Shown piece after piece: positions 7,495-42,586 of a stretch of DNA of 64,000 nt. A program made the translations under genes and the position numbers. The notes beneath the pieces were generated by a model. That model saw only the letters and a list, made by a program, of their open reading frames with translations, was not told where the DNA came from and did no database searches. Within the stretch, counting starts at the first letter, position 1, and the number at the start of each line of letters is the position of its first letter. Source of the stretch: Longimicrobiales bacterium (GTDB lineage: Bacteria; Gemmatimonadota; Gemmatimonadetes; Longimicrobiales; Gaopeijiaceae); assembly GCA_965198065.1 (NCBI GenBank), contig CBDAON010000004.1, forward strand, positions 352,001 through 416,000, written 5' to 3'.

Positions 7495-8982
7495 TCAGTA
7501 GCGGTAGTGATCCGGCTTGTAAGGGCCTTCGACCGGCACACCGATGTACTCCGCCTGCTTCGGCGTGAGCTCGGTCAAGCGCACGCCCAGCTTCTCCAGA
7601 TGGAGCCGGGCAACCTTCTCGTCCAACACCTTTGGAAGCGTGTACACCTTCCGCTCGTAGGAGGCGGCGTTCGCGTGAAGGTCGAGCTGAGCCAGGACCT
7701 GGTTCGAGAACGACGCCGACATGACGAAGCTCGGGTGTCCGGTGGCGCATCCCAGGTTCAATAGCCGGCCCTCGGCCAGGACGAGCACGCTGTGTCCGTC
7801 CGGGAAGATGAACTCGTCGAGCTGGGGCTTGATTTCGTTCCTGCGGATCCCGCGCTTCTTCAGCCCGGCCATGTCGATCTCGTTGTCGAAGTGGCCGATG
7901 TTTCCGACGATCGCCTTGTCCTTCATCCGGGCCATGTGGTCCACGGTGATCACGGACGTGTTGCCCGTGGCTGTCACGAACACGTCGGCCGTCTCGATCA
8001 CGTCTTCGAGCTGGACCACATGGTAGCCCTCCATCGCGGCCTGGAGCGCGCAGATGGGATCGATCTCCGTAATCACGACACGCGCTCCCTGGCCGCGGAG
8101 CGCCTGGGCGCACCCCTTGCCCACGTCGCCGTAGCCACAGACCACGCACACCTTCCCGGCGAGCATGACGTCCGTGGCTCGGAGAATCCCGTCCGTGAGC
8201 GAGTGCCGGCAGCCGTAGAGGTTGTCGAACTTCGACTTGGTCACCGAGTCGTTCACGTTGACGGCAGGAAAGAGGAGCGTGCCGCTCCTCATCCGCTCGT
8301 AGAGCCGATGCACCCCCGTGGTGGTCTCCTCAGACACGCCCTGGATCTCCTTCGCCCACCGGGTCCAGCGAGTACCATCCTCTCGGAGCGACTGGCGGAG
8401 CAGGTCGAGGATGACTCCCCACTCCTCGGGTTGGGTCTCCGCGTCGAAGTCGGGGACCCGTCCCGCCCCCTCGTACTTGACCCCGAGGTGCACGAGGAGC
8501 GTCGCGTCGCCGCCGTCGTCCAGGAGAAGGTTCGGCCCCCGGCCATCCGGCCAGCGGAGCGCCTGGTCCGTGCACCACCAATACTCCTCCAGGGTCTCGT
8601 TCTTCCAGGCGAAGACCGGAACTCCCGCCGGAGCTTCCGGGGATCCACCCTTCCCGACCACCACGGCCGCCGCGGCTTGATCCTGGGTCGAGAGGATGTT
8701 GCAGGAGGCCCAGCGCACCTCCGCCCCGAGGTCATCGAGCGTCTCGATCAGGACGGCGGTCTGCACGGTCATGTGGAGGCTGCCCATGATCCTGGCGCCG
8801 TCCAGCGGACGCGCGGGGCCGAACTCCTCCCGGAGCGCCATGAGCCCCGGCATCTCGTGCTCGGCCAGGCGGATCTCCTCTCTTCCGAGCCTCCAGAGCG
8901 AGAGGTCCTTGACTTTGAAGTCCGGGCTTCCGTCGAGCTCCCTGGAGAGGAGCGGGTTCTTGGCCTTGGTGGCTACGGGCAT
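7495..8982 (-). CDS. ahcY: Adenosylhomocysteinase
   Basis: [47 protein letters not shown] and YKPDHYRY motifs. Confidence 0.98.
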
Positions 8983-8997
8983 CTTTCCTTCCTCGGA

Positions 8998-9945
8998 TCA
9001 GGTTCGGGTGGTGGCGCAAAGGTTGAACAGGAGGGGCCCGGCCGCGCTCGGGTCCGCCGGAAGCTCCGAGAGGCGAGGCGGATCGAACCCCGCGGCCTCG
9101 AGCCAGCCGGTCAGATCCTCACGGGTAAAACCGAGCCAGACGTGGCCCATTTCCTCCCGGAACGCGGTCCGCTGGTGACGCACCATGTCCAGGATCAGAA
9201 TCCTCCCCCCAGGCCGGAGAGCCCGGTGGACTTCCGCGAGAGCCCGGGGCGGGTCCACCACGTAGTGGAGCACGAGGGACAGGATGGCCAGGTCGAGGGT
9301 CCGTTCGCCGATGGGTAGCGCTTCCAGGTCGCCCTCCCGCACGTCCACGTTCTCCTGCCCTGCGAGCCTCTCGCGGGCCACCCGGAGCATCTCGGCGGAG
9401 CGGTCCACGGCCACGACCTGGCGCGCGAAGGGCGCGAGGAGCCGGGTTAGTCGTCCGGTCCCACACCCCAGATCCCCCACTACGTCCCCGGGGCGGAGCA
9501 GCGCGGGGAGGAGCCGCAAGTCCACCTCGGCCCCGAACAGCTCCTCACGCAGTGTGTCCCACCGCCCGGCTGCCGAGGAAAAGAAGGCCCTCGAGCGCTC
9601 GGCCCTCGCGTCGAGCACGCTCTTCGCGCGCGCCCGATCGGCCTCGGCCGCCGGGCTCCGGGAGAGCTCGCCTCGCACGGCGTCCCAAAGGGCTCGGGCC
9701 GACGCCTCGAGCGACGGAGATACGCGGTAGTGCCGGCTGGGGCCCTCGGCGCGCGCCGTGAGCCACCCTTCGCGGGACAGGATCCGGAGGTGTCGGCTCA
9801 CCGTGGACTGGGGAAGCTGCACCACCTGGCAGATCTCCGAAACGGTGAGCTCGCTCCCGTCGAGGAGGAGCAGGATCCTCGCTCGGGTCTCGTCGGCGAG
9901 CGAGCTGAGCCGGCCTAGGACCGGAACTGGAGAAGAGATGGCCAC
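8998..9945 (-). CDS. sahR: ArsR-HTH / SAM-methyltransferase fusion regulator (SahR-like)
   Basis: N-terminal ArsR HTH (QSTVSRHL) and C-terminal DLGCGTG MTase domain; immediately upstream of ahcY. Confidence 0.85.
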   Translation of the reverse strand: MAISSPVPVLGRLSSLADETRARILLLLDGSELTVSEICQVVQLPQSTVSRHLRILSREGWLTARAEGPSRHYRVSPSLEASARALWDAVRGELSRSPAAEADRARAKSVLDARAERSRAFFSSAAGRWDTLREELFGAEVDLRLLPALLRPGDVVGDLGCGTGRLTRLLAPFARQVVAVDRSAEMLRVARERLAGQENVDVREGDLEALPIGERTLDLAILSLVLHYVVDPPRALAEVHRALRPGGRILILDMVRHQRTAFREEMGHVWLGFTREDLTGWLEAAGFDPPRLSELPADPSAAGPLLFNLCATTRT

Positions 9946-9960
9946 GTAACGTTAATCCTT

Positions 9961-9980
9961 GTATCCGGATTAACAGATAT
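9961..9980. promoter_or_regulatory. Putative SahR operator, GTATCCGGATTAACAGATAT
   Basis: TATC-N10-GATA palindrome in an AT-rich patch 15 bp upstream of the sahR start; resembles the 20-bp ATATC...GATAT SahR box. Confidence 0.6.
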
Positions 9981-10137
9981 TACCTATGGAGCGGTCCGTC
10001 AAGGGGAGCGGGCATCCCGGCCCCGGACGGTCCGTACCCGTGACCCCAGGCGGGGCGAGCGGTGCCGCGGCGCTCCTTTCCCCAGGCCCCCTCCGTGCAT
10101 ACTCTTCGCCCGTCACCGACGACGAGGTCCTAGAAAC

Positions 10138-11706
10138 GTGTCTAACACTCGCCGCCTCGCCACATGCGGGTTCCTGGCCGCGGCTGCCTCGTGGCTGGGG
10201 GCGCCCGCTGCCCAGGCGCAGCGGCCCGTCGATTCTCCGCCCTTCGAGGTGCACGAGGCCACGATCGCCGAGCTCCAAGCAGCCATGGGAGCGGGTCGCG
10301 TGACCTCGGTCGAGCTGGTCGACGCCTACCTGGCACGCATCCGAGCATATGACCTGGCCGGCCCCCGCCTGAACGCGGTGATCCACCTGAATCAGCGAGC
10401 GCGGAGCGATGCGGCAGCGTTGGACGGGGAGCGGTCGGCGGGACGCGTGCGCGGGCCCCTGCACGGCGTGCCGATCCTGCTCAAGGACAATTACGACACG
10501 AGGGACATGCCGACGACCGCCGGGTCCATGGCGCTCGCGGGCGTGATCCCGCCCGACGACGCCACGATCGTCCGGCAGATCCGCGAGGCAGGAGCCGTGA
10601 TCCTCGGGAAGACGAACCTACACGAGTGGGCGCGCGGGTACACCACGATCAGCTCGCTCGGAGGCCAAACGCTGAACCCCTACGATCCGACGCGCATCGC
10701 GGGGGGATCGAGCGGCGGGACGGGGGCCGCGGTGGCCGCGAGCCTGGCGGCCATAGGGTGGGGAACGGACACGTGTGGATCCATCCGGGTCCCCGCCGCG
10801 CTGAACGGCCTCTTTGGGCTCCGCCCCACGAAGGGGCTCGCGAGCATCGACGGCATCATCCCGCTCGCACACACGCAGGACGTGCCCGGGCCCCTGGCCC
10901 GTACCGTGTCTGACCTCGCGATCGGTCTCGACGTAACGGTCGGTCCCGATCCCGGTGATCCGTCCACGGCGATCCTGGCCGGGCGCCCCCTGCCCCGCTT
11001 TGCCGAGGCTCTCGATCCCGACGCGCTCCGGGGAGCTCGCATTGGGGTGCTCGCGAACTACTTCGGGAGTGCTCCCGAGGACGCCGAGGTCGGGGAGCTC
11101 GTGCGACGAGCAGTCGCCCGAATGTCCGAGCGCGGTGCCGAGGTGGTCGAAGTGACGCTTCCTGGCCTCGACTCTCTCCTCGCGGGCACGAGCGTGATCT
11201 CCGTGGAGTTCAAGTTCGACCTCCTGGACTATTTGGCGGCCACACCCACCTCCCCGTGGCGCACCCTCACCGAGGTGCTCGAGAGCGGGCTCTACCACGA
11301 CGCGGTGGCCGGCGGCCTCAGGCGAAGCGACGCGGTGGAGAGCCGGGACTCGAACGCGCGCCGCGAGGCACTCGCCCGGCGTGAACGGGCGCGGCAGACG
11401 GTCATCGATTTCCTCGAGAGCGAGGACCTCGACGCCCTGGCCTACCCCTCGGTCCGCCGCCCGCCCGCGCGCGTGGGAGAGGGCCAGGGAGGGGTGGCGT
11501 GCCAGCTGAGCGCCGCGACGGGCCTCCCAGCCATAACGATTCCCGCAGGACTGGTGGCGGACGCCCTTCCCCTGGGGTTCGAGCTCTTGGGGCGGCCGCT
11601 CGACGATGCGCGACTCGTCCAGTTAGCGTATGGTTACGAGGAGGCGTTTCGCCCGCGCATTCCCCCGGCCCTTACGCCCCCGCTGCCGAACCCCGACTCG
11701 CCCTAA
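10138..11706 (+). CDS. Secreted amidase (amidase signature family)
   Basis: Signal peptide; GPLHGVPILLKDN, GGSSGG and GTDTCGSIRVPA motifs. Confidence 0.93.
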   Translation: MSNTRRLATCGFLAAAASWLGAPAAQAQRPVDSPPFEVHEATIAELQAAMGAGRVTSVELVDAYLARIRAYDLAGPRLNAVIHLNQRARSDAAALDGERSAGRVRGPLHGVPILLKDNYDTRDMPTTAGSMALAGVIPPDDATIVRQIREAGAVILGKTNLHEWARGYTTISSLGGQTLNPYDPTRIAGGSSGGTGAAVAASLAAIGWGTDTCGSIRVPAALNGLFGLRPTKGLASIDGIIPLAHTQDVPGPLARTVSDLAIGLDVTVGPDPGDPSTAILAGRPLPRFAEALDPDALRGARIGVLANYFGSAPEDAEVGELVRRAVARMSERGAEVVEVTLPGLDSLLAGTSVISVEFKFDLLDYLAATPTSPWRTLTEVLESGLYHDAVAGGLRRSDAVESRDSNARREALARRERARQTVIDFLESEDLDALAYPSVRRPPARVGEGQGGVACQLSAATGLPAITIPAGLVADALPLGFELLGRPLDDARLVQLAYGYEEAFRPRIPPALTPPLPNPDSP

Positions 11707-27171: not shown

Positions 27172-28407
27172 CTAACGTAGCGAAGAAGACCGACCATCCG
27201 CAGGCTTCCCACTGAGGTAGGCTTCCCAGTCACCCATGAGCCGGCGTCGGCGTTCGAACAGGTCCGTGCGCCGATAGGCCGCCTCAACCCTGTTCTGGAC
27301 GACATGCGCGAGAGCCGCCTCGATGACCTCGCGGGGATGATCCGTTTCCTCGGCCGCCCAATCGCGGAAGCTGGAGCGAAACCCGTGGGGCACGGCCGCG
27401 ATCTTGTGCTTCCCGAGCATCCGGCGCAGTTGCTTCTCCTCGAGCTGCTTGCCGAGCCGATTGGGAAACAGATACGGACTGGTTCCCTCCACGAGCGTCC
27501 GTGCCCCGTCCAGAATCTCCAGTGCACGACCACACAGCGGGACCCGGTGCTCGCGGTTCGCCTTCGTCCGCCTGGCCGGTACGGTCCACACGCCATTCTC
27601 CCGATCAATCTCGGTCCACTCGGCCCACCGCACCTCGCCCCACCGCGCTGCTGTCAGCACCAGGAACTCGAATGCCAGCCGGACGGCCGGAGGTACCGTC
27701 GATGCCCGCGCCGTCCGGATGGCCGCGGCCACCTCGCGATGTGGCAAGGCCCGCATGTGCTGCACGACCTTATGCTGTGGACCCAGGACCGGGCCAATCC
27801 GGTCGCACGGGTTGTCGATCCGAAACTCCATCGCCACCGCCCATTCCAACACCGCATGGAGGCGTTGGCGCAGCTTCCGGGCGGTGGCCGCCTTCGTGTG
27901 CCAGATGGGAGCGATGATCTCCAGCACGTCGGCGCTCGTGACCTCCGACACCGGCAGCTTCCCGACCCGCGGGAAGGCATACCGCTCGAAGGTCAACATC
28001 CAGTCGCGGCCCTGCGCCCGACTTCGCCACCCGGCCCGCTTCTGCTCGACCACACGTCGAGCGGCTTCGGCGAACGTGGGTATGCCAACGGAGCGCCGCT
28101 TCTCGGCCAGCGGGTCGCCGCCCGTGCGGGCCAGCTTGCGGTTGGCCAGCGCCTGCTCGCGGGCCTCGGCCAGCGAGACTAGGGTGACGCTGCCGAGTCC
28201 GAGCTCGCGCTTGCGGCCCCGGATCACGAGCCGCTGAATCCAGCTCCGCGTTCCCGTCGGCTGCACGTAGAGGTACAATCCGTTGCCGTCCGCGTGTCTT
28301 CCAGGCGGGGCGGTGCGCACGAAAGCGGCCGACAGGGCCTTGTCGGGATGACGGCCCTTGGGCTTCGTTTTCCGGGGCGAGCGGGCCTTGTTCGTTACAG
28401 AATCCAT
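27172..28407 (-). CDS. P4-type tyrosine integrase (Int1) with N-terminal arm-binding domain
   Basis: DGNGLYL...W arm domain; catalytic R (TAARWGE), K, HGFR, LAH and AAY; probable start ATG 28407. Confidence 0.93.
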   Translation of the reverse strand: MDSVTNKARSPRKTKPKGRHPDKALSAAFVRTAPPGRHADGNGLYLYVQPTGTRSWIQRLVIRGRKRELGLGSVTLVSLAEAREQALANRKLARTGGDPLAEKRRSVGIPTFAEAARRVVEQKRAGWRSRAQGRDWMLTFERYAFPRVGKLPVSEVTSADVLEIIAPIWHTKAATARKLRQRLHAVLEWAVAMEFRIDNPCDRIGPVLGPQHKVVQHMRALPHREVAAAIRTARASTVPPAVRLAFEFLVLTAARWGEVRWAEWTEIDRENGVWTVPARRTKANREHRVPLCGRALEILDGARTLVEGTSPYLFPNRLGKQLEEKQLRRMLGKHKIAAVPHGFRSSFRDWAAEETDHPREVIEAALAHVVQNRVEAAYRRTDLFERRRRLMGDWEAYLSGKPADGRSSSLR

Positions 28408-28512
28408 CCCCATATAATATAGGGGATGGAAGTGGATATCAATGGATGCCGGAGTCGGAAGAATCCGCTAGGATGTGTCCATAACTTGTTGTTATAGCAG
28501 TTACTTATGGAC
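28403..28512 (-). promoter_or_regulatory. Int1 leaderless sigma70 promoter with palindromic operator and IHF-like site
   Basis: TTGATA-17-TATTAT-6-ATG; TCCATCCCC-N10-GGGGATGGA at 28403-28430; GTCCATAA-N20-TTATGGAC at 28477-28512 around TAACAACAAGTTA. Confidence 0.65.
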
Positions 28513-29733
28513 TGTACTGGATGATACTGCACATCGGTCTAGATAGCATGCCCATTCCTCCATGAGCCGACGGCGGCGCTCGAACAGGTCGGAGCGCATG
28601 TAGGCGGCCTCGACCGGGTTCCGGACTACATGGGCCAGGGCCGCCTCGACGACTTCGCGGGGGTGGTCCGTCTCTTCGGCGGCCCAGTCTCTGAACGACG
28701 ACCTGAACCCATGCGGCACCGCCGCGATCCCGTGCTTCCTGAGCAGCCGGCCCATCTGCTCGCCGCCCACCTCTCTGCCGCGCTTGCCGACGAACACGAT
28801 CGGACTCCCGCCGCCGCCCAGCTTCCGCGCCGCGTCGAGAATCTCCAGCGCGCGGCCGCACAGCGGCACACGGTGCGCGCGCAGGCTCTTCATCCGGCTC
28901 GCGGGGACCGTCCAGACGCGCTCCTCCCGGTCGATCTCGCTCCATACCGCCCCGCGGACCTCGACGCCCCGCGCCGCCGTGAGCACCATGAACTCGAACG
29001 CCAGCGCGTCCACCTTGCCCGCCTTCGCCGCCCGGACCTTCTCGATGGCCGCCCCCACCTCGCGGTGAGGCAGGGCCTTCCGGTGTCTGACGACATGTTG
29101 CTGGGAGCCGAGCACCGGCAGGAGCCGGTCGCACGGGTTGTCCGTTCTCCAGTCCATGGCGATGGCCCATTCCAGCACGGCGCGGATGCGGTGGCGAACG
29201 ATCCGGGCCGTCGGCGGGTTCGCGTGCCAGATGGGTGTGAGGATCTCGAGCACGTCGGCGCTCGTCATCTCGGAGACCGGCACCCTCCCGATCCTTGGGA
29301 AGACGTGAATCTCGAAGCTGCGATACCAGTTCCTCGGCACCGCCGCGTTGCGCCATCCGGCGCTCTTCTGCTCGATGACGCGCTTAGCGGCCTCGGCGAA
29401 GGTGGGAATGCCCGCCGAACGCCGCTTCTCGGCCAGCGGATCGCCGCCCGCGCGGGCAAGCTTGCGGTTGGCCAGCGCCTGCTCCCGCGCCTCGGCGAGC
29501 AAGACCAGTTGGGCGTTGCCGAGTCCGAGCTCGCGCTTGCGGCCCCGGATCACGAGCCGCTGAATCCAACTCCGGGTTCCGGTCTTCTGGACGTAAAGGT
29601 AGAGACCGTTGCCATCGCAGTGCCTGCCGGGCGGTGCCGAGCGCACGAAGGCGGTCGAGAGCCGCTTGTGGGGATGGCGGCCCTTGGGCTTGCCTAGGCG
29701 GCGCTTGACGGGAGATCGAATCACATTATCCAT
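28501..29733 (-). CDS. P4-type tyrosine integrase (Int2, complete copy)
   Basis: Same domain layout and catalytic residues as Int1; probable start ATG 29733. Confidence 0.93.
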   Translation of the reverse strand: MDNVIRSPVKRRLGKPKGRHPHKRLSTAFVRSAPPGRHCDGNGLYLYVQKTGTRSWIQRLVIRGRKRELGLGNAQLVLLAEAREQALANRKLARAGGDPLAEKRRSAGIPTFAEAAKRVIEQKSAGWRNAAVPRNWYRSFEIHVFPRIGRVPVSEMTSADVLEILTPIWHANPPTARIVRHRIRAVLEWAIAMDWRTDNPCDRLLPVLGSQQHVVRHRKALPHREVGAAIEKVRAAKAGKVDALAFEFMVLTAARGVEVRGAVWSEIDREERVWTVPASRMKSLRAHRVPLCGRALEILDAARKLGGGGSPIVFVGKRGREVGGEQMGRLLRKHGIAAVPHGFRSSFRDWAAEETDHPREVVEAALAHVVRNPVEAAYMRSDLFERRRRLMEEWACYLDRCAVSSSTVHK

Positions 29734-30027
29734 CCCACAATCATAACTGGGATGGAACGGGATCGCAAAGGGCACTGCTGGCAGAACGAGACAAGAAAGA
29801 AACTACGTAACCTGTTGTAAATACTGGATGTTATGCACCTACCCGGAAATCCTTGGACGGTATCGGATTCAAGTTGTGCGTTTACGGCAAGTAATCGTCT
29901 AAGTTCAACCGGGACTGCACGATCTGCCGCACTTGCCGTTGGCCGATGGCTGATTGCAGCGTACCGAAACAGCGAGAAAACGGCATCGAATGGCGGGAAT
30001 CCGGGTCGCATCGGGTCCCGTGTCAGC
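28559..30027 (-). repeat. 1469-bp inverted repeat, left copy (Int2 plus about 290-bp leader)
   Basis: Reverse complement matches 41118-42586. Both ends were aligned by eye, and the six-frame translations are identical. Confidence 0.93.
29729..29772 (-). promoter_or_regulatory. Int2 leaderless promoter/operator
   Basis: TTGCGA-17-TATGAT-6-ATG; TCCATCCCA-N10-TGGGATGGA at 29729-29756. Confidence 0.65.
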
Positions 30028-32305: not shown

Positions 32306-33712
32306 TCAGGCCAGGAGTGAAGGCGCAGACGATGTTGCTTTCTCGGGAGGGGATTCCTCCGGTTCATCACGCGGAAATCTGGGAGCCTTCGGCACATACG
32401 GCACCAGACCCTCCATTGCTTGACGATAGAAGCGTTCCACACCGTCCGTAATGGACGTGAGTACACGGGCACCGGCCCGTCGTCCACGCCCGGTAGCGGC
32501 CCGTCGTCCACGCCCGGTAGCCAGCCCCATTGTCCAACTGAGCACGAAGAAACGAGGTTCTGCGTCTGTAGAGATCGCCGCGCGATCAGGGCCCGTCATG
32601 ATCGGCATGGGTCCGTCTTGAAGGGCGTCGATCGGGGCTTCAGTGTATAGCCCTCGCCTGTTCCACTCTACGTGCACCTGCAATCCCTTGGGAAGGTCGT
32701 CAATGGGAAGCTTCCGCAGCAACCAATTGAGCCGTGTCTTTGTTCTTCCTTCACTCGGCGCCGGGAACCTGACCGAATACCGCACGACTTTACCCTGAAG
32801 CATCAGCTCCAGACGTATATCACCAATCGCATCTCGCACTTTCAATGCGCCTGTCAAAATGCCACTGTCAAGGGCCTCCGCACACATCTGTTTCGTGCGT
32901 CTGCCAGGGTCCTTCACATCTGCCCGAGACGTACGGCGCTGCACGTCTGCTCCCATTTTGGCGCGCAGCCGGAAAGCCAGCTTCTTGAGAAATGCATCCC
33001 AATGTTCGGTAACGTCGGTCAGTTGATTAGGTACCGTAGAAAGTTTGTGTTCTCTCGCAGCCTGAAGCACGATACCCCAGTGAGCACCGAGCGACGGGGG
33101 GGCGATGATGCGCGACTCGTCGTCGGTGATATACTTGATCCACTCATCAAGCATCCAGTGTTGATCCGAATCTTTGATCTCCTTCTTGGTACTGAGCACT
33201 TGTGCTTCCGCGAGAAGACGCTCCCACGATAGGTGGACGACCGGCACCTTACGCAGACGTCTCCCATCTAACTCCACTGGAGGTCGTCCGTTGGGCAGGG
33301 AGGCCTGGTTGCTGATTGTCACGAGGGCATCAAAACCTCCCTCGCCCGCCAACTTGTGGTAGGTATCGACCTGTCCAGCGTCGAGGAGATTGTCACCCAC
33401 CTTGACCTCGACGGGCGCCGACCACTGGGTCTTTCCGCGGATGACACGGATTATGCCATCTGGTCGAACGATCCTGGTCGGAGAAGTCCCCATCTCGAAG
33501 CTCGCTTCGGTGTAGCACGAGATGCGCCCCGCAGGCCCGCCCGCAGCACGAACCACGATCCGCCCAAACTCGGACACCGCCCGTACCATAGCTAATAGGG
33601 ATGCTGCGGCGCGCAGCTCGGCCTCCCGTGTGCTGGAGATGTGTGCAGACGGAAACAGACGGACTTCGTGTCCCTCAAGTCTGTCGCTGTGTACCATGGT
33701 GTCGTCTCCCAC
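32306..33712 (-). CDS. Conserved hypothetical protein with PD-(D/E)XK nuclease-like N-terminal domain
   Basis: RPDG...VEVK...Q..TY...ALVTISNQ; 468 aa; lower GC; start may be ATG 33697. Confidence 0.7.
   Translation of the reverse strand: MGDDTMVHSDRLEGHEVRLFPSAHISSTREAELRAAASLLAMVRAVSEFGRIVVRAAGGPAGRISCYTEASFEMGTSPTRIVRPDGIIRVIRGKTQWSAPVEVKVGDNLLDAGQVDTYHKLAGEGGFDALVTISNQASLPNGRPPVELDGRRLRKVPVVHLSWERLLAEAQVLSTKKEIKDSDQHWMLDEWIKYITDDESRIIAPPSLGAHWGIVLQAAREHKLSTVPNQLTDVTEHWDAFLKKLAFRLRAKMGADVQRRTSRADVKDPGRRTKQMCAEALDSGILTGALKVRDAIGDIRLELMLQGKVVRYSVRFPAPSEGRTKTRLNWLLRKLPIDDLPKGLQVHVEWNRRGLYTEAPIDALQDGPMPIMTGPDRAAISTDAEPRFFVLSWTMGLATGRGRRAATGRGRRAGARVLTSITDGVERFYRQAMEGLVPYVPKAPRFPRDEPEESPPEKATSSAPSLLA
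32473..32520. repeat. In-frame 24-bp tandem duplication (ATGRGRRA x2)
   Basis: CGGCCCGTCGTCCACGCCCGGTAG repeated exactly. Confidence 0.9.
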
Positions 33713-33860: not shown

Positions 33861-34397
33861 TTAGGAGATATACTGACATCTTATCTCATCTGAACCCCAG
33901 TGCGCGGCTACGACCGCCTCGTACGCGGACCAGCGCAAGCGCTGTGGCGCGGTCGAGTCCCCCATTCCGATCAACGGCATCTTCGCCCATGTCCTGCAGT
34001 CCCCGCACTGCCTGCCGGCGCACGCCGTAGGCTCGCACTGCGGCGGCACCGTCCAGTCGTCCGGCCACAGGAACACTTGGCGGTAGCGCGTGGCGACTAC
34101 GTCTGCAACCCTCGCGGACGTCGAGCGCGGTGTCATCGGCGCGTCCGTTCGGTATTCGCGCACCCGTAGACTGACTTCCCCCGTTTCCGGGTCTATCCCG
34201 TCGACGATCCCTTTCGCGTACACGCCGTTCTCGAAGCGGTGGGGGCCGTGGAAGTACACCCAGCATTCCCAACCCTTCTCCACAACGTCGATGTAGTGGC
34301 GCCACCCGAGCCGCAATCGGCGACCCTGCATCCGTTCCGGGAGCACGGCTGGCCGGAAGCCGTCGTAGCCGCTGTGTATCTTGTAGAGAAACCTCAC
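33861..34397 (-). CDS. Hypothetical protein: beta-rich N-terminal domain plus Cys cluster; probably 3'-truncated
   Basis: GTG start overlaps the HAD stop (GTGA); CxxxxCxxxxCxxC; abrupt switch to AT-rich DNA at about 33895. Confidence 0.65.
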   Translation of the reverse strand: MRFLYKIHSGYDGFRPAVLPERMQGRRLRLGWRHYIDVVEKGWECWVYFHGPHRFENGVYAKGIVDGIDPETGEVSLRVREYRTDAPMTPRSTSARVADVVATRYRQVFLWPDDWTVPPQCEPTACAGRQCGDCRTWAKMPLIGMGDSTAPQRLRWSAYEAVVAAHWGSDEIRCQYIS

Positions 34398-34987
34398 AGG
34401 TCAAGCAGTTCGTCGAAGCGCGCGAGCACCTTGTCCGCGCGGTAGGGCTCCTCCGTCTCGTACCCGAACGACGCCCAGGCGAACCGCACTGAGGCCGCCT
34501 CCGCAGCCTCAGCGTCCGTGGCTCCGTCCCCCACGAACCAGATCCCCGCGTCCGCTTCCCGCCCAATCTCGGCCAGAACCCAGCGTATCCCGTGCGGCCT
34601 CGGTTTCGCTGGTATTTCCGCCCGGGGTGTCGCGATGGCGGCGGAGTACTTGCCGACGCCGGTCGACTGCAGCAGGGGCTGGACAAGCCAGTCCGGCAGG
34701 TTCGTCACGATACCGATCGGCGTTCCTCTTCCCCGAAGCCGGTCCAGCGTCGGGACGACCCGGTCGTACAGCTCGACCGCACCGCCGTCCTCCCTCGCCG
34801 CCCGGGCCAGCCGCGCGTTGCTCACGCCGCGATCCCTCGCTGCCCGTACGACGCTTACGCCAGCTTCGAGTTCCCGCTCGACCTGCAGCGCCGAAACGCC
34901 GGACAGCCGTGCGATGGTCCCCGCGTACCACGGGCGGCTGTCCCAAACCGTCCCGTCTAGATCCAGGACGACAACTGTTGCAGCCAC
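34394..34987 (-). CDS. HAD-family hydrolase
   Basis: Motif I DLDGT, motif II VTN, motif III KP and motif IV VGDGATD; GTG start at 34987 overlaps the DprA 3' end. Confidence 0.88.
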   Translation of the reverse strand: MAATVVVLDLDGTVWDSRPWYAGTIARLSGVSALQVERELEAGVSVVRAARDRGVSNARLARAAREDGGAVELYDRVVPTLDRLRGRGTPIGIVTNLPDWLVQPLLQSTGVGKYSAAIATPRAEIPAKPRPHGIRWVLAEIGREADAGIWFVGDGATDAEAAEAASVRFAWASFGYETEEPYRADKVLARFDELLDL

Positions 34988-36066
34988 GCTTCTTGTTCTT
35001 GCGGATTGTCCGTCAGTTCGAAGGCGAAACCGCCCGTGCGATCGTCTTCCTCGATGAGTGCGTTGCCGCTCGTCTCCTTGGACCCATCCGTCCTGAATGT
35101 GGCGACCAGCTTCTTCTGCTCCCGTCCGAAGCGGTAGGCGTTCATCGCTCCCCCGGTCAGCGACGACTGGGCAACCAGGACGCCCTGGGCGAACGCCACG
35201 ATCAGCTTGTTCCTCTTTCTGAGCAGCAGCGACGACGCCCGCTGTCCGAAGCCGAATTCGCTGACGAACGCCGCTCCTGGGTGCGCGAGCAGCTCTTGCC
35301 ACAACTCGCGGTTCTCCGGTGGAAACACCTTGTCGAGTCCACAGGGCATAACGCACACCGTGCGGCCCCCAGCCTCCACGGCTGCGCTGTGCCCCATCGA
35401 GTCGGCGCCCATTGCGAACCCCGACACGACCACCATTCGATTGCGCGCCGCCACCGTCGCGAACCGCTGAGCGGCGCTCGCGTAGGGTTCGTGCGTCTTC
35501 CGCGAGCCCACGATGGCCACCGTCCCCGCCGCGTCCCAGACCGCCGGATCCCCGCGCACGTAGAGCACGGGTACCGGATTGTTGCTCGCGTACACACGCG
35601 CCGGGTACCCCGGGTCGCCATGGACGAGGATGGTCGCCGAGAGTTCGGCTGCACGTTCGAGTTGGTCGATTGCCCTCCCCCGCCCCGCGGCCACGTCCGC
35701 CTCCGAAAGGGCGGCAATACCGCCTCGCAGCTTTTCGCCCGTGCGCCCCCTGAACGGCAGGAGATCGGGGTTCCTGATCGCCGCCTGTGCGTCGACGCCG
35801 GCGTCGTACATGGCACGGAACTTCACAGGACCGAACCCGGGGACCCGCTCCAGCGCGAAAATGGCGCCGAGACGGTCGGCGCCAGGGCCGCGCCCGCTTC
35901 GATACGGTGCGTCCCCTACGATGTCCCGGCCCCTCAGCAACCGTTCCTCCAGCAACAACCTGACGGCTTCAGACCTCGATGGCGCTGGGGTACGAGTGGT
36001 CCGCCAACCGTCCAGCGCTTTGATGGTCGCCTCGTCCAGCCGTGACTCGATACGTTGCGTCGTCAT
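34957..36066 (-). CDS. DprA/SMF-domain protein with N-terminal ribbon-helix-helix (ShosA-like)
   Basis: YP...PVLYVRG, VAIVGSR, VVSGFAMGAD..H, FVSEF and RNKLI motifs; N-terminal RIESRLD...SRSEAVRLLL; ATG 36066 with GAGGA RBS. Confidence 0.88.
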   Translation of the reverse strand: MTTQRIESRLDEATIKALDGWRTTRTPAPSRSEAVRLLLEERLLRGRDIVGDAPYRSGRGPGADRLGAIFALERVPGFGPVKFRAMYDAGVDAQAAIRNPDLLPFRGRTGEKLRGGIAALSEADVAAGRGRAIDQLERAAELSATILVHGDPGYPARVYASNNPVPVLYVRGDPAVWDAAGTVAIVGSRKTHEPYASAAQRFATVAARNRMVVVSGFAMGADSMGHSAAVEAGGRTVCVMPCGLDKVFPPENRELWQELLAHPGAAFVSEFGFGQRASSLLLRKRNKLIVAFAQGVLVAQSSLTGGAMNAYRFGREQKKLVATFRTDGSKETSGNALIEEDDRTGGFAFELTDNPQEQEAWLQQLSSWI

Positions 36067-36174
36067 TCCTCTCTCACTACCAGCACCGCCGCCAGGCGGT
36101 CGTCTTCCTGCCAACCGGCGCTCCCGTCGCGTTTTCGTCAATGGGACGCGACCAACGGGCCGTTCCGTACGTCC

Positions 36175-37197
36175 TCAACTCCCCGTTCCCTGCGTGTGGC
36201 GGCTGGACTGGAGCGAACTCTCCGCCAGCGCAAGCACCAGCAGCACGACGCGCTGGCAACCGGACTCGCGAAGCCGCAGAGCACACACGCCCGTAGTGTG
36301 ACCGCGGTTCATCACGTCGTCGAGCAGTAGGACCGTTCGTCCCCGCACCTCATCCGCCTTCCGGTCGGCGAACGAGTACTGGCGGGCCAGCTCTGTTTTG
36401 CCGACGAATCTCGACCGCGCCGAGCTGTCCGCTCGTTCGAGGAAGTCCGTGCGCAGCGGGATCCTGAGCCTCGAACTCAGGTGTTCTCCGGTCTTGGCCA
36501 GGATGTCCAAGCCTCTCTCTGCCCTCCGGCTCTCCGCCGCGGGCACTGGTACGATGTAATCCACTTCACGGATCCACGCTCGGCACATCGGGCTGGCTCG
36601 CACATGCTCTGCCAGAACGCGCCCGAAAAAACCCGGTAGCACAGGATTGCCCTGTTTGAATTCCCGGATTAGTAGCGACCATTGCTCGTTGCGGTTCTTG
36701 TCGCCGGCCCAGCGGTAGACGCCGATGGCCGACACCTCGTCGATTCCCACTACGGTCGGGCTGCGTATCGCTTGGTTCAATCCGAATTGCTTCAGGAACC
36801 TGCCGCGCAACTCGACCTCCGAGGGCGGCCTCTCGAACTGTTCTGCGATCGCCGCGTCGAACTTCCTGACTTCCGCGCTCGCACCTTTCTGGATGACGGT
36901 CAGCTGCTGCTGGATCAGCCACCTGAGTCGCCGGGGCACGCCGGGAAACCGCAGAGCAGTTTGGAGATCCCCGACGGTCCGCGATTCGTCCAGATCGCTT
37001 TGGTGCGCCAGCGCGCGCCGATAGAACGCGTATGCTAGGTCGTCAGCGTGCTTCGCCTGCTGCTTCGGCGACGAGCCCGACCGATCAAACCTCTCGGCGG
37101 CATCCGAGTGATGCCCCTCTCTCGCCAACCGGGCAGCGTCGTCCAGCTGCTTGCGCTGGAATTTAGCCTTCAGACTGGATAGGTCCGCGGACATCAT
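36175..37197 (-). CDS. ComF-like phosphoribosyltransferase with TPR-like helical N-terminus
   Basis: DYIVPVP, R..ERG, VLLLDDVMNRGHT (PRPP loop) and V.LLVLA motifs. Confidence 0.85.
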   Translation of the reverse strand: MMSADLSSLKAKFQRKQLDDAARLAREGHHSDAAERFDRSGSSPKQQAKHADDLAYAFYRRALAHQSDLDESRTVGDLQTALRFPGVPRRLRWLIQQQLTVIQKGASAEVRKFDAAIAEQFERPPSEVELRGRFLKQFGLNQAIRSPTVVGIDEVSAIGVYRWAGDKNRNEQWSLLIREFKQGNPVLPGFFGRVLAEHVRASPMCRAWIREVDYIVPVPAAESRRAERGLDILAKTGEHLSSRLRIPLRTDFLERADSSARSRFVGKTELARQYSFADRKADEVRGRTVLLLDDVMNRGHTTGVCALRLRESGCQRVVLLVLALAESSLQSSRHTQGTGS

Positions 37198-38374
37198 CAC
37201 CCCTCGGCCGGTCCGTTCGACCCGTCGTCCACGACTCGTGCGGGTTCCCCAAGTGCAACACCTTCACCGGCGCGACGTCCCGTCGATCCGTTCGTCCAAT
37301 GTCGTTTGACATATAGGGGATTGACGGCTCGCTCACCCATAACAGACGAGATGACGGCGCACGGTATGACCTCCCCTGTGATGATCCATGGGCGCCGCGA
37401 TGCCCGCCAATCCCTGTACTGGCGCTCTAAGGCGCATACTCCCCACGGGACATCCATCGCGGCTGCTGGCGGGGGTACCCCGGAGTCCCCCCAGTGCTCA
37501 CCGGCGCAGGGGGCAATTGGTCACTCCCGGCCCGTTTGCCCGTACTGCTCAAGTCAAGAGCACTCGAAGCGAAAACCGCGCTCGCAAGGGTACAGGGGCG
37601 CCTGTCGGAAGTCTCGCCGCGCCACGATACCACCAGCAAGACCATGAACGTGTCGGCCACCGGACGGCCACGCCGCCACGGCCGGAAGCCACGTGCCTGG
37701 CCTAGCCGCGCGCCGCAGGGGGTTCGAAGGGGCAGCATAATGCTAGGGTTCGAACCCATACCTGCCCCCCCGCCCTATGATCGGATGGCTAGGTTCAACG
37801 GCGGTGCCCTGAAAGCGGTTCGGCTGCAGCTGCGAGGCCCCCAATTTCACGCGGGGGTGGCGCAGTGGCGACGCACGAGCCGCCTGCGCACGTTGAAAGC
37901 CTGCCTGCCGAAGCAGATCTGCCAATTCAGCCAAGAACTGGCGGTCTCCGCGTAGCGGCGCACGGAGGCGCTTGTCCATCAGTCCACCTCGTCGTCCAGA
38001 AACTCACGCCTCTCGTTCGTCTCGCGGTTCAGATACACCATCGTCCAGTCATCGGCTTGCGGTCCATTTGCCGACCCGAGAAGCTCCCGAGATAGAACTG
38101 CCGCGACGAGCTGTACGGCGGCACGACACTTGTCATATCTTGCCTGCGAAGGTGAACGTGCCACTGCGAGGCATCGGGAGGCAGGCCACCCACGGTGCTA
38201 GCGTTTCAGCGGAGGGCGGATGACCCGCTAGCCAAGTTGCGGTCCACCCTCAAAGAGTATGAACGAGCAGGAACTCTCGGCAGCGTGCCGGTAGCGGAAC
38301 TACTCCTCGTCTCGCACACTCGCTCGAACGGTTCCAGTTGACCTGGCCTACGCACAACCCGAGTCCCTAGGCAC

Positions 38375-38866
38375 ATGATCCGAAACTACACCGATGAGGA
38401 GCTCATGAGGCTCCGTAAGCTTCCCAAGAAGGTACGAAACCCGGGAGCCCACTGGTCTGAGAAACCGACAGAACATCCGGCCCACAGACAACGTACTTTA
38501 AAGGCGACAGGAACCAGTACGGATGGCCGAGAACACCGTTTCCTGATCTATCAACGTAAGAACCTTCGTGACGAGCCCAGTTACTCGTGCGGGATCGTCT
38601 ACCTGCCACCAAGTGGGCCGAGGCTCACGCTGGCTCGGTACAATGGGCCGAGTCACCGGCACGGGGGCATCCGTTACAAAACTCACATTCATCGGGCCAC
38701 GGAGACCGCCATGGCTGCTGGGGCGCGACCAGAGCAGCCAGCCGAGGAAACCACGCGCTACAGTACCCTCGAGGGTGCCTTTGCATGTCTTATCGAAGAC
38801 TTTAACCTGTCTGGAGTACACGCCGAACCTGATCATCCGAGTCTGTTTCATGGCCATCAAACCTGA
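38375..38866 (+). CDS. Hypothetical protein with His-rich motif (partner of DUF1828-like gene)
   Basis: LARYNGPSH.H...THIH; overlaps the downstream gene by 17 nt. Confidence 0.7.
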   Translation: MIRNYTDEELMRLRKLPKKVRNPGAHWSEKPTEHPAHRQRTLKATGTSTDGREHRFLIYQRKNLRDEPSYSCGIVYLPPSGPRLTLARYNGPSHRHGGIRYKTHIHRATETAMAAGARPEQPAEETTRYSTLEGAFACLIEDFNLSGVHAEPDHPSLFHGHQT

Positions 38867-39629
38867 CGACCTTGAGCGGCGACTGTGCGAACAGCTCTGC
38901 GCCGCCGTTCGTGTGGAGCAACGTCCCGACGGCGAGTTCATGCTCGCGGCTGAATTCGAATTCCCCGATGGGGACAAATACCCAATCCACCTATCGGAAG
39001 CCCCCGGCGGCGTCCGGTTATCAGACAAGGGCGACACGTTGATGCGGATAAGCTACGACCATGACATCGACGCTTTCATTACCGGAAGTCGCGGGCTACT
39101 GATCGAGCGCATCTTGAGCGAGGAACGAGTCGACCAGGACCGAGGCGTGTTCTACCTAGATACGCCTACCGACCGTCTTTCCGATGCCCTCTTTCGTTAT
39201 GGTCGCGCCCTCACCCGAATCTATGACCTCACACTCCATTCACGGTCACGGGACGCCTCCACCTTCTACGAGGACCTCGCGGACCTTATCCTCCATACGG
39301 CTGACGAAGAACAGATCCAGCGCGACCACCTTCTGCCCGACATTCCCAACTCCGAGGCCTATCCGATCGACTATCGATTGCCAGGGAAGCGTGGTGGGCA
39401 GGTTTTCTTGTATGGCGTTCCGAATCGGGACAAGGCCCGTCTGACCACCATTATCCTGTCCCACTTTCACCGAATTCACTTGGACTTCGAGTCGATTCTA
39501 GTTTTCGACGATCAGGCTGAGATCCCTCGGATGGACTTGGCCAGGCTCTCGGATGTGGGAGGAGAAATGGTTTCGTCGCTCACGTCGAGTGACGATCTGC
39601 GCCGAAAGATGGAGCGCCGGCTCGCCTAG
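38850..39629 (+). CDS. DUF1828/DUF1829-like protein
   Basis: F.FPDGD..PI.L...RLSDKGDTL..I N-terminal pattern and a nuclease-like C-terminal half (YPIDY); ATG 38850. Confidence 0.7.
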   Translation: MAIKPDDLERRLCEQLCAAVRVEQRPDGEFMLAAEFEFPDGDKYPIHLSEAPGGVRLSDKGDTLMRISYDHDIDAFITGSRGLLIERILSEERVDQDRGVFYLDTPTDRLSDALFRYGRALTRIYDLTLHSRSRDASTFYEDLADLILHTADEEQIQRDHLLPDIPNSEAYPIDYRLPGKRGGQVFLYGVPNRDKARLTTIILSHFHRIHLDFESILVFDDQAEIPRMDLARLSDVGGEMVSSLTSSDDLRRKMERRLA

Positions 39630-39991: not shown

Positions 39992-40935
39992 ATGAAGGAG
40001 TGGCAGCAGGCCGCACGCATCACAGGCGCGCCTTGGTTCCTTCTCGTGCTCGCCGTATCCGGGTGTCTCCCGACACAGGACTCGCCCGAGGCGCAGTACA
40101 ACCTCGGTGTCATGTACGCCAGCGGCGAGGGGGTCCCTCAGGATGACGCCGAAGCCGTGCGCTGGTACCGCATGGCTGCCGAGCAGGGTCACGCCGAGGC
40201 GCAGAACAATCTTGGCGTCATGTACGACAACGGCCGGGGGGTCACTCAGGACGACGCTGAAGCCGTACGTTGGTATCGGATAGCCGCCGAGCAGGGTGAA
40301 CCCCGTGCCCAGTTCAACCTCGCGGGCATGTACGACAACGGCCGGGGGGTCACTCAGGACGACGCTGAAGCCGTACGTTGGTATCGGATAGCCGCCGAGC
40401 AGGGTGAACCCCGTGCCCAGTTCAACCTCGCGGGCATGTACGACAACGGCCGGGGGGTCACTCAGGACGACGCTGAAGCCGTACGTTGGTATCGGATAGC
40501 CGCCGAGCAGGGTGAACCCCGTGCCCAGTTCAACCTCGCGGGCATGTACGACAACGGCCGGGGGGTCACTCAGGACGACGCTGAAGCCGTACGTTGGTAT
40601 CGGATAGCCGCCGAGCAGGGCGAGGCCCGTGCACAGTACTATCTCGGGTGGATGTACGTCGGCGGCGACCCTTGGGACCAGCTCTGGCTGGGCGGCCAAG
40701 CTTCCGTTGAGCTGGCCCCGACGGTCCCGACGGACACGGTGTTGGCGCATATGTGGTTCAACATGGCCGGAGCAAACGGAGACGCACGGGCCCGAAGCGA
40801 AAGGGAGCGCCTAGAGCGATACATGACGCAGGAGGACATAGGCGCGCTACCGACTTCGCGCGCCGGTGTATTGAGTCGAGCTACCGGGAATGTGGCCCAG
40901 GGCAGCACCCGGATTCGCCGCCCTCGTCCCGATAA
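39992..40935 (+). CDS. Sel1-like repeat lipoprotein; probable frameshift at about 40840
   Basis: Lipobox VSGC; repeats AQ.NL..MY.NG.GV.QD.AEAVRWYR.AAEQG. The natural tail RATDFARRCIESSYREC is in another frame ending at 40935; the ORF as read ends at 41068. Confidence 0.85.
40219..40620 (+). repeat. 108-bp exact tandem repeat, about 3.7 copies
   Basis: Units start at 40219, 40327, 40435 and 40543. Confidence 0.93.
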
Positions 40936-41117
40936 GGCTAGCCTTGCCACCCGGGCAGAACCAGATACTTCGCGTACCCTTCGAGGCCTCCTCCGGCGAG
41001 GAGGCCGTCATCGGCTTGCCACAGCATGTTCACCTCAGCGGAGACTATTCGAGCCAGACAACGGATGAGCCTAGGAAATCGGTGGTGCCATGGCGATCAC
41101 CGATACAATCGGGACGC

Positions 41118-42586
41118 GCTGACACGGGACCCGATGCGACCCGGATTCCCGCCATTCGATGCCGTTTTCTCGCTGTTTCGGTACGCTGCAATCAGCCATC
41201 GGCCAACGGCAAGTGCGGCAGATCGTGCAGTCCCGGTTGAACTTAGACGATTACTTGCCGTAAACGCACAACTTGAATCCGATACCGTCCAAGGATTTCC
41301 GGGTAGGTGCATAACATCCAGTATTTACAACAGGTTACGTAGTTTCTTTCTTGTCTCGTTCTGCCAGCAGTGCCCTTTGCGATCCCGTTCCATCCCAGTT
41401 ATGATTGTGGGATGGATAATGTGATTCGATCTCCCGTCAAGCGCCGCCTAGGCAAGCCCAAGGGCCGCCATCCCCACAAGCGGCTCTCGACCGCCTTCGT
41501 GCGCTCGGCACCGCCCGGCAGGCACTGCGATGGCAACGGTCTCTACCTTTACGTCCAGAAGACCGGAACCCGGAGTTGGATTCAGCGGCTCGTGATCCGG
41601 GGCCGCAAGCGCGAGCTCGGACTCGGCAACGCCCAACTGGTCTTGCTCGCCGAGGCGCGGGAGCAGGCGCTGGCCAACCGCAAGCTTGCCCGCGCGGGCG
41701 GCGATCCGCTGGCCGAGAAGCGGCGTTCGGCGGGCATTCCCACCTTCGCCGAGGCCGCTAAGCGCGTCATCGAGCAGAAGAGCGCCGGATGGCGCAACGC
41801 GGCGGTGCCGAGGAACTGGTATCGCAGCTTCGAGATTCACGTCTTCCCAAGGATCGGGAGGGTGCCGGTCTCCGAGATGACGAGCGCCGACGTGCTCGAG
41901 ATCCTCACACCCATCTGGCACGCGAACCCGCCGACGGCCCGGATCGTTCGCCACCGCATCCGCGCCGTGCTGGAATGGGCCATCGCCATGGACTGGAGAA
42001 CGGACAACCCGTGCGACCGGCTCCTGCCGGTGCTCGGCTCCCAGCAACATGTCGTCAGACACCGGAAGGCCCTGCCTCACCGCGAGGTGGGGGCGGCCAT
42101 CGAGAAGGTCCGGGCGGCGAAGGCGGGCAAGGTGGACGCGCTGGCGTTCGAGTTCATGGTGCTCACGGCGGCGCGGGGCGTCGAGGTCCGCGGGGCGGTA
42201 TGGAGCGAGATCGACCGGGAGGAGCGCGTCTGGACGGTCCCCGCGAGCCGGATGAAGAGCCTGCGCGCGCACCGTGTGCCGCTGTGCGGCCGCGCGCTGG
42301 AGATTCTCGACGCGGCGCGGAAGCTGGGCGGCGGCGGGAGTCCGATCGTGTTCGTCGGCAAGCGCGGCAGAGAGGTGGGCGGCGAGCAGATGGGCCGGCT
42401 GCTCAGGAAGCACGGGATCGCGGCGGTGCCGCATGGGTTCAGGTCGTCGTTCAGAGACTGGGCCGCCGAAGAGACGGACCACCCCCGCGAAGTCGTCGAG
42501 GCGGCCCTGGCCCATGTAGTCCGGAACCCGGTCGAGGCCGCCTACATGCGCTCCGACCTGTTCGAGCGCCGCCGTCGGCTCATGGA
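41118..42586 (+). repeat. 1469-bp inverted repeat, right copy
   Basis: Matches the reverse complement of 28559-30027. Confidence 0.93.
41412..42586 (+). CDS. P4-type tyrosine integrase (Int2 second copy), 3'-truncated; reads through to 43295
   Basis: Identical to Int2 up to RRRLM and retains all catalytic residues, then runs into the antisense strand of the Ig-like gene. Confidence 0.85.

Follow-up and report, generated by a model that had tools for sequence, protein, structure and literature searches.

We analysed a 64,000-nucleotide stretch of a Longimicrobiales bacterium genome (contig CBDAON010000004.1, positions 352,001 to 416,000), here called the window; positions below are counted within it. 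At 33861–37197 the window contains a truncated copy of a conserved operon. The operon encodes a DprA-family protein, a HAD phosphatase and a phosphoribosyltransferase (PRTase) with a PUA/EVE-like domain and a zinc finger, and it has an optional partner, a second PRTase with a TPR-like domain. The family resembles the ShosTA toxin–antitoxin system and lacks its own model in PADLOC-DB 2.0.0. It probably serves anti-phage defence of some kind. A ShosTA-like abortive-infection system, in which the PRTase effector is gated by a modified base or nucleotide, is a reading that we consider, as a whole chain, equally likely to be right or wrong.

The four open reading frames (ORFs) are co-oriented on the minus strand, as the original prediction had stated. 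G1 (36175–37197) encodes a TPR-like helical domain (residues ~1–105) followed by a ComF-type PRTase with an intact DD loop (D293-D294). G2 (34957–36066) encodes the DprA-family protein, the predicted antitoxin, with a clade-specific N-terminal ribbon–helix–helix (RHH) and the three arginines with which ShosA binds single-stranded DNA (ssDNA). G3 (34394–34987) encodes the HAD phosphatase, has all four catalytic motifs and starts 31 bp inside dprA. The G4 ORF (33861–34397) consists of a remnant (33897–34397), coding for residues 1–167 of a PUA/EVE-like, zinc finger and PRTase protein of ~351 amino acids (aa), and a tail past junction 33897 of 11 unrelated codons and a stop (33861–33896). The predicted overlaps among the last three genes were found: DprA and HAD share 31 bp, and HAD and G4 share 4 bp (GTGA). 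The gap between G1 and G2 is 108 bp. Pfam assigned PF00156 to G1 (E = 1.6e-5, under the curated cut-off), PF02481 to G2 (E = 4.6e-43) and PF00702 to G3 (E = 1.8e-16); the G4 ORF had no Pfam match. Promoter, terminator and repeat scans gave nothing above chance. HAD and PRTases were on separate genes in the window, bearing out the predicted rearrangement of ShosTA parts, and also in all loci fetched.

G4 matched a longer homologue, P0005, with 93% identity over residues 1–167, and then broke abruptly into the unrelated codons. In the reading direction of G4, the G+C content was 66% before the junction and 52% after the break. Among longer proteins, 196 homologues were found; of the 120 listed, 112 were 340–365 aa long and 118 had a DD phosphoribosyl pyrophosphate (PRPP) loop. 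The gene had been described as an added Cys-rich gene; it is in fact a conserved core PRTase that is truncated here. The ~351-aa homologues and the break after residue 167 ruled out a complete small Cys-rich protein. The window copy keeps the putative reader domain (residues 1–117) and a Cys cluster (C121, C126, C131 and C134), and its PRTase is gone. tblastn found no match past residue 167 elsewhere in the genome, which is 87.6% complete.

Contigs from runs X1 (one difference), X5 and X6 (no differences) bridged junction 33897, ruling out an assembly error as the cause of the truncation. The three runs belong to a single study, and X1 is possibly the source sample. Contigs from X4, X5 and X7 matched one side only and diverged exactly at 33897, and both sides were seen with other partners. 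As contigs bridge or diverge at this point, the break reflects a genuine rearrangement, past which the sequence differs in other strains. The core effector of the window thus lacks its catalytic half, so its modified-base arm is predicted to be inactive, leaving the TPR-PRTase as the basis of whatever activity may remain. Frameshifts or interruptions of G4 or HAD were also seen at 6 of the 24 genome loci (L011, L012, L013, L014, L020 and L024), with an IS5 transposase in L013 and an insertion in L020. Effector decay may be common across relatives, and some of these breaks are possibly sequencing errors.

The full-length protein was examined with an AlphaFold2 model of P0005 (41 sequences; predicted local distance difference test score, pLDDT, 90). 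Foldseek ranked ComF first (E = 8.9e-6) and ShosT next (E = 2.2e-4). In VIA-align, residues 118–337 matched ComF (7p0h) with Z 15.0 (root-mean-square deviation, rmsd, 3.4; 180 aligned), indicating a zinc finger plus ComF-type PRT fold as in ComF/ComFC. Residues 1–117 matched PUA-like EVE/YTH/ASCH domains (2ar1, Z 9.0; 2gbs, 8.3; 1wmm, 8.0), THYN1 bound to 5-methylcytosine DNA (5j3e; Z 8.8, rmsd 3.4, 111 aligned), the YTH domain of Mmi1 (5o8m, Z 8.4), DrmA (6.7) and VcaM4I (6.6). The model thus points to a PUA-like β-barrel. The ESM Atlas score for an EVE cluster, 0.79, is a lead only.

Among 58 G4 homologues, W32, K193, G195, P226, L227, K231, R239, D303, D304, G309 and T311 (57/58) were nearly invariant. 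The PRPP-loop pair D303-D304, present in 58/58, is missing from the truncated G4. Trp32 lies in the modelled pocket and was invariant in homologues reaching down to ~25% identity, which is suggestive of a modified-base reader. The original prediction had proposed the fourth gene as a possible sensor; the PUA/EVE-like fold fits that role, but the gene itself is the core PRTase and not an extra. At E ≤ 1e-30 the family comprised 119 clusters (50% identity). One member, P0268, is an 806-aa fusion of HAD, the G4 protein and a GyrB C-terminal piece; its HAD–G4 fusion, a single case, echoes the hydrolase–PRTase fusion of ShosT, and its tail may be an assembly chimera. A group of distant relatives of 350–380 aa, some without the Cys cluster, was also seen (P0277, P0292, P0295, P0299, P0311, P0313, P0316, P0320, P0323 and P0341).

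To describe the operon we used 30 genome loci (24 true G4 relatives and 6 loop matches only) and 51 metagenome loci, 49 of them above the threshold of the G4 hidden Markov model. DprA, HAD and G4 occurred in that order in 60 of 73 loci, and 8 more were cut by contig ends. The fixed core is therefore DprA-HAD-(PUA/EVE-PRTase). The predicted conservation of gene order holds for these three genes; the fourth, the TPR-PRTase, is optional and varies in position. Hosts included Alpha-, Gamma- and Deltaproteobacteria, Acidobacteriota, Actinomycetota, Latescibacterota, Gemmatimonadota and a Methanomassiliicoccales archaeon. The module has a sparse, patchy distribution: it was present in 2 of 401 genomes of its own phylum (DprA, 31 of 31), and a search of 401 archaeal genomes returned one locus, which was already known. 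In a quick PRTase tree that included 12 ComF rows, the G4 clade (support 100) and the TPR-PRTase group (89) stood apart from the ComF rows (90).

The predicted model of G1 (340 aa) had a pLDDT of 94 and a wholly helical N-terminus. The proposed TPR-like extension agrees with matches to TPR proteins, but their Z of 7–9 is inside the background for helical folds. The PRTase part matched ComF 7p0h (Z 14.3, rmsd 3.8, 175 aligned) and ShosT 8zvb (Z 10.4); it shares the PRT fold of ComF/ComFC but has no Cys cluster. Positions were assessed in 41 loci (three of them near-duplicates) that had the core plus at least 1.2 kb on either side. A TPR-type PRTase adjoined the core in 33 of these: 16 upstream on the same strand, as in the window, 3 upstream and divergent, 7 downstream on the same strand and 7 downstream and convergent. 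No full-length TPR-PRTase was found anywhere in the genomes of the core-bearing loci L001, L008 and L018, whose completeness was not given. The TPR-PRTase, which had been cast as the ShosT equivalent, is thus an optional part. In L012 and L034 the cores were 70–72% identical to the window clade (DprA 72% to G2), and their TPR-PRTase domains were 29–31% identical to G1 and grouped with other subfamilies, away from it. The TPR-PRTase is a swappable as well as optional partner. The PRPP loop of G1, DDVMNRGHT, had been called deviant. The sequence is as described, but its Asn is a clade-specific substitution and was discarded as a meaningful deviation: among 90 close homologues, 51 had DDVMNRG and 14 had DDVMTRG, and distant members mostly had Thr.

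A quick DprA tree was built from 68 rows: 38 system proteins, 21 housekeeping proteins of the same phylum, 7 from two-gene DprA and PRTase loci, and 2 ShosA. The 38 system DprAs formed one clade, with a Shimodaira–Hasegawa-like approximate likelihood ratio (SH-aLRT) support of 100, in which several phyla and the archaeon were mixed. Branching with housekeeping DprA, a possibility that bore on the original prediction, was thus not found. G2 scored 130 bits on the dprA equivalog TIGR00732, under the cut-off of 191, and the genome keeps a separate housekeeping DprA. The best tree also separated the system DprAs from ShosA. In an approximately unbiased (AU) test on 27 of the rows, a clade of system proteins and ShosA was not rejected (p = 0.385), ShosA being two long-branched rows; the separation from ShosA in the best tree is therefore tentative. 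The ssDNA arginines of ShosA (R139, R234 and R261) correspond to R189 (38/38), R285 (38/38) and R312 (36 Arg and 2 Lys of 38) in the system DprAs. Equivalents of R139 and R234 were also present in 21 of 21 housekeeping DprAs, hence they are not specific to ShosA.

The RHH of G2 was a weak PF01402 signal, with E = 0.081 for the window piece and E = 0.004–0.09 in 8 of 12 pieces, all under the cut-off. The original prediction of an RHH on DprA is supported to that extent, but the RHH was confined to the DprA sub-clade of the window and was rejected as a system-wide feature. Where present, it likely autoregulates the operon. The HAD proteins kept their motifs: D9, D11 and T13 in 62 of 65, K128 in 64 of 65, and D154 and D158 in 65 of 65. 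G3 was 26% identical to the HAD of PfAC02a ShosT (E = 5e-9) and matched P2_4C9 ShosT weakly (E = 1e-4); it also resembles housekeeping enzymes of the phosphoglycolate-phosphatase type. Loci L026–L029, in four unrelated genomes (one archaeal), consist of a short DprA and a short PRTase gene and formed their own group in both trees. In L021 a gene just upstream of dprA (5117–6106, minus strand) weakly matched PF24409, a winged helix–turn–helix PRTase-associated family (E = 2.4e-5). The probable housekeeping comF (G000:C4:257495-258119) was matched in two pieces in different frames, suggesting a frameshift.

DprA loads RecA onto incoming ssDNA, and both PRTases resemble ComF in fold. ComFC, which has a zinc finger and a PRT domain, is reported to bind ssDNA (PMC9005727). 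On these grounds the operon could be a non-toxic gate on incoming DNA, in which DprA and two ComF-like proteins handle ssDNA that enters by transformation or conjugation, while the PUA-like domain sorts this DNA according to its modification state. We consider this unlikely. The same genome has its separate housekeeping DprA, the system proteins form clades of their own, the distribution is rare and patchy, and a HAD partner is foreign to competence yet part of ShosT. Competence DprA and ComF/ComFC share with the operon the DprA fold and the combination of a zinc finger with a PRT fold (Z 15.0 and 14.3); they differ from it in clade, in the extra reader or TPR domains, in the HAD partner and in their spread.

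The likeness to ShosTA was examined next to that of other systems. In the ShosTA reports (PMC11961720, PMC12961424, PMC9122126), as in our operon, a single operon is described as combining a DprA that has these ssDNA arginines with a HAD-fold hydrolase and a DD-loop PRTase. Both PRTases here had ShosT among their best fold matches. There are also differences. The ShosTA toxin is a single hydrolase–PRTase polypeptide, whereas here the HAD has a gene of its own and its catalytic aspartates are canonical. The core PRTase is joined to a PUA/EVE-like domain plus zinc finger, and a TPR-PRTase usually lies next to it. ShosTA has two genes, whereas this family has a three-gene core, to which 33 of 41 assessable loci add a fourth gene. 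G1 and the G4-family PRTases also fall outside the ShosT sequence family: neither matched the ShosT-specific model PDLC03012, which one distant TPR-PRTase hit at E = 0.0036 and true ShosT at E = 3e-294.

PADLOC models of ShosA and ShosT did hit the locus, but the hits were generic. The housekeeping DprA scored better on the ShosA model (6.8e-61) than G2 did (1.9e-45), and on the generic model PDLC03962 G1 (2.4e-7) was in the range of ComF-type controls (5.5e-13 to 1.2e-6). As housekeeping DprA and ComF score equally well, the hits are not diagnostic, and we rejected them as proof of membership. PsyrTA/RqlHI likewise couples a DprA-like antitoxin to a toxin whose ComF-type PRTase domain has an additional domain N-terminal to it, and the toxicity of the RqlH PRTase is reported to be restrained by its DprA-like partner (PMC4670107). 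Our operon differs in having no RecQ helicase and in having a HAD; its PRTases, of 340 and 351 aa, start with TPR or PUA-like parts, and G1 covers only positions 572–685 of the 689-position PsyrT model. In PUA-Cal-HAD, a PUA-like domain that is reported to sense m6-dAMP shares one protein with a nucleotide-acting enzyme; that system also has a HAD phosphatase as a separate protein, and links to methyltransferases (10.64898/2026.01.15.699771). Its effector is Calcineurin-CE and it has no DprA, whereas the fused domain here is a PRTase; the main text of that report does not mention DprA, PRTase or ShosT. The main text and three supplements of an EVE survey (PMC7641849) contain no DprA, ComF or PRTase term. 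The literature searched did not describe this architecture; an earlier mention is possible in surveys of SLOG/DprA, Ter or PRTase conflict systems outside that search.

Neighbouring genes were scanned with PADLOC (best hits, E ≤ 1e-10, within 8 kb; ABC-ATPase, TnpB, TniQ and kinase hits excluded). The genome set was 93 of 254 candidate ORFs (at least 300 aa; 4 dropped for size) from 22 loci. The metagenome set was 108 ORFs of at least 200 aa from 23 of 51 loci, chosen for long flanks and non-redundancy. Restriction–modification (RM) or DISARM neighbours were found in 8 of the 22 genome loci, and RM, DISARM or BREX neighbours in 14 of the 23 metagenome loci, giving 22 of 45 in total. As a control, 8 regions of the same genome (96 ORFs) were scanned, one of them picked to hold the housekeeping dprA. 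None had an RM, DISARM or BREX best hit; two ORFs matched a methyltransferase model of MADS, and one matched a PDC model. Fisher's test gave p = 0.015 with the control at 0/8 and p = 0.12 if one MADS/PDC-like region was counted (1/8). The predicted enrichment near defence genes agrees with the first count but not with the second, and is suggestive, not settled. In L053 two tandem G4-family genes (7986–10157), the second split, lie beside DISARM genes and TniQ/TnsB.

These neighbours also bear on a further explanation, that the operon does salvage or clean-up beside RM systems: the reader-PRTase would recycle or remove methylated bases, HAD would dephosphorylate the products and DprA would aid repair. 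The RM neighbours in 22 of 45 loci, the amino-methyltransferase motif in 16 of 19 neighbouring methyltransferases checked, and the similarity of the HAD to housekeeping phosphatases fit this role. However, neither the type nor the position of the RM genes is constant between loci, about half of the loci have no RM match, and the DprA-PRTase pairs reported with a known function are toxin–antitoxin systems (PMC9122126, 10.1101/2022.05.11.491447). We regard salvage as quite improbable. Nor can the ligand be read from the neighbouring methyltransferases, because the amino type is the commonest methyltransferase type anyway.

For abortive infection by a gated PRTase, we modelled the functional steps on ShosTA, RqlHI and PUA-Cal-HAD, starting from the gene set, gene order, folds, residues and truncation observed here. 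In uninfected cells DprA would bind ssDNA and offset low-level DNA stress caused by the PRTase, as ShosA does. The ShosT PRTase is reported to be toxic and to need its DD pair, and ShosA to need its ssDNA arginines (PMC11961720, PMC12961424). During infection, the PUA/EVE-like pocket may bind a modified nucleobase or nucleotide, derived from methylated host DNA degraded by the phage or from modified phage DNA, and activate the fused PRTase. The PRTase would then consume PRPP and disturb nucleotide pools, the HAD would remove pyrophosphate or nucleotide phosphate and so drive the reaction, and the infected cell would arrest or die. The TPR-PRTase could be a second, exchangeable input that answers to a phage protein. 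More tentatively, one DprA may guard two PRTases in a dual-input immunity, one gated by a modified base through the PUA/EVE-like domain and the other by a phage protein through the TPR domain, with the pocket pointing to the acceptor; this remains a rather speculative extension.

Several findings count against this gated reading. The EVE model PF01878 did not match G4, the best value being E = 0.16 for the distant homologue P0341, and hhalign of the G4 profile with 13 EVE proteins gave a probability of 19.5% over 30 columns. The reader assignment comes from the modelled fold, for which Z values of 8–9 are barely over the stated background of the tool, and PUA-like domains also bind unmodified nucleic acid. 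Both PRTases are nearer to ComF than to ShosT in fold, which would also fit a DNA-handling role. The ShosA RecA-contact residues K200/R206 aligned to P250/W256 in 38 of 38 system DprAs; they are mostly absent from housekeeping DprAs too, and the alignment is distant. Five loci with G4 fragments (L022, L071, L076, L078 and L079) had no HAD or DprA upstream, 23 of 45 loci had no RM-type match among the ORFs scanned, and the neighbourhood control was small and from one genome.

Part of this evidence would suit an anti-phage toxin–antitoxin system triggered in the manner of ShosTA, either by phage ssDNA or because DprA is lost or titrated once the host is shut off, with the PUA-like domain merely tethering the PRTase to nucleic acid and reading no modification. 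ShosTA is reported to respond to Gp0.7 shut-off and to ssDNA (PMC11961720, PMC12961424), the ssDNA arginines are kept in the system DprAs, and the EVE assignment is weak by sequence. Against such a trigger stand the invariance of the pocket Trp32, the top N-terminal fold matches, all of which are PUA-like domains with a base pocket, and the frequent RM neighbours. We consider this trigger possible but doubtful.

Two identical, inverted copies of a 1469-bp repeat bearing a tyrosine integrase (left, 28559–30027, minus strand; right, 41118–42586, plus strand) enclose ~11 kb of cargo that includes the operon. The original prediction had described an integrase-bounded island. Integrase copies do lie on both sides, but more than a dozen related copies (66–99% identity) occur across contig C4, and no att repeat was found. 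Because of these many copies, and because the tRNA-Leu end has no repeat in the window, a classical att-bounded island is not established. A further integrase-related stretch lies at 27172–28413. This P4-like integrase unit seems to multiply like an insertion sequence and may build composite elements. Together with the frequent broken copies, and with the transposases, TniQ and relaxase found close to several relatives, the flanking repeats could indicate a selfish addiction module that keeps mobile DNA stable and plays no part against phages. G4 had no match in 72,556 plasmids, 50,697 phages or viral contigs, however, and a reader domain and swappable TPR partner would be superfluous for addiction, which makes this explanation very improbable.

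The same cargo contains other genes. The 464-aa protein at 32306–33700 (minus strand) had no Pfam, PADLOC or NCBIfam match; in ESM Atlas, unnamed clusters scored 0.98, and clusters in which 18% of members have PDDEXK_4 scored 0.91. It is likely a PD-(D/E)xK nuclease placed beside the truncated G4 by the rearrangement. A two-gene pair at 38375–39629 (plus strand), whose second gene is a DUF1828 protein (PADLOC PDC-M24B, E = 2.9e-9), is another candidate defence module. A Sel1-repeat protein with near-identical 108-bp tandem units is encoded at 39992–41068 (plus strand).

The copy in the window is less important than the family, because its core effector is truncated. For annotation, PADLOC hits to ShosA and ShosT are generic here, and a three- or four-gene system stands without a model of its own. 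Both ShosTA structure papers leave the PRTase acceptor unknown, and the trigger is explained in part. The PUA/EVE-like pocket on a PRTase gives a concrete handle on this problem, namely what the pocket binds and whether that ligand is activator or substrate. If the gated reading is true, modified-nucleotide sensing, as reported for PUA-Cal-HAD, would extend to the DprA/PRTase family. If the dual-input extension is also true, the acceptor of ShosT-type PRTases would be a modified nucleobase that is turned into a poisonous nucleotide.

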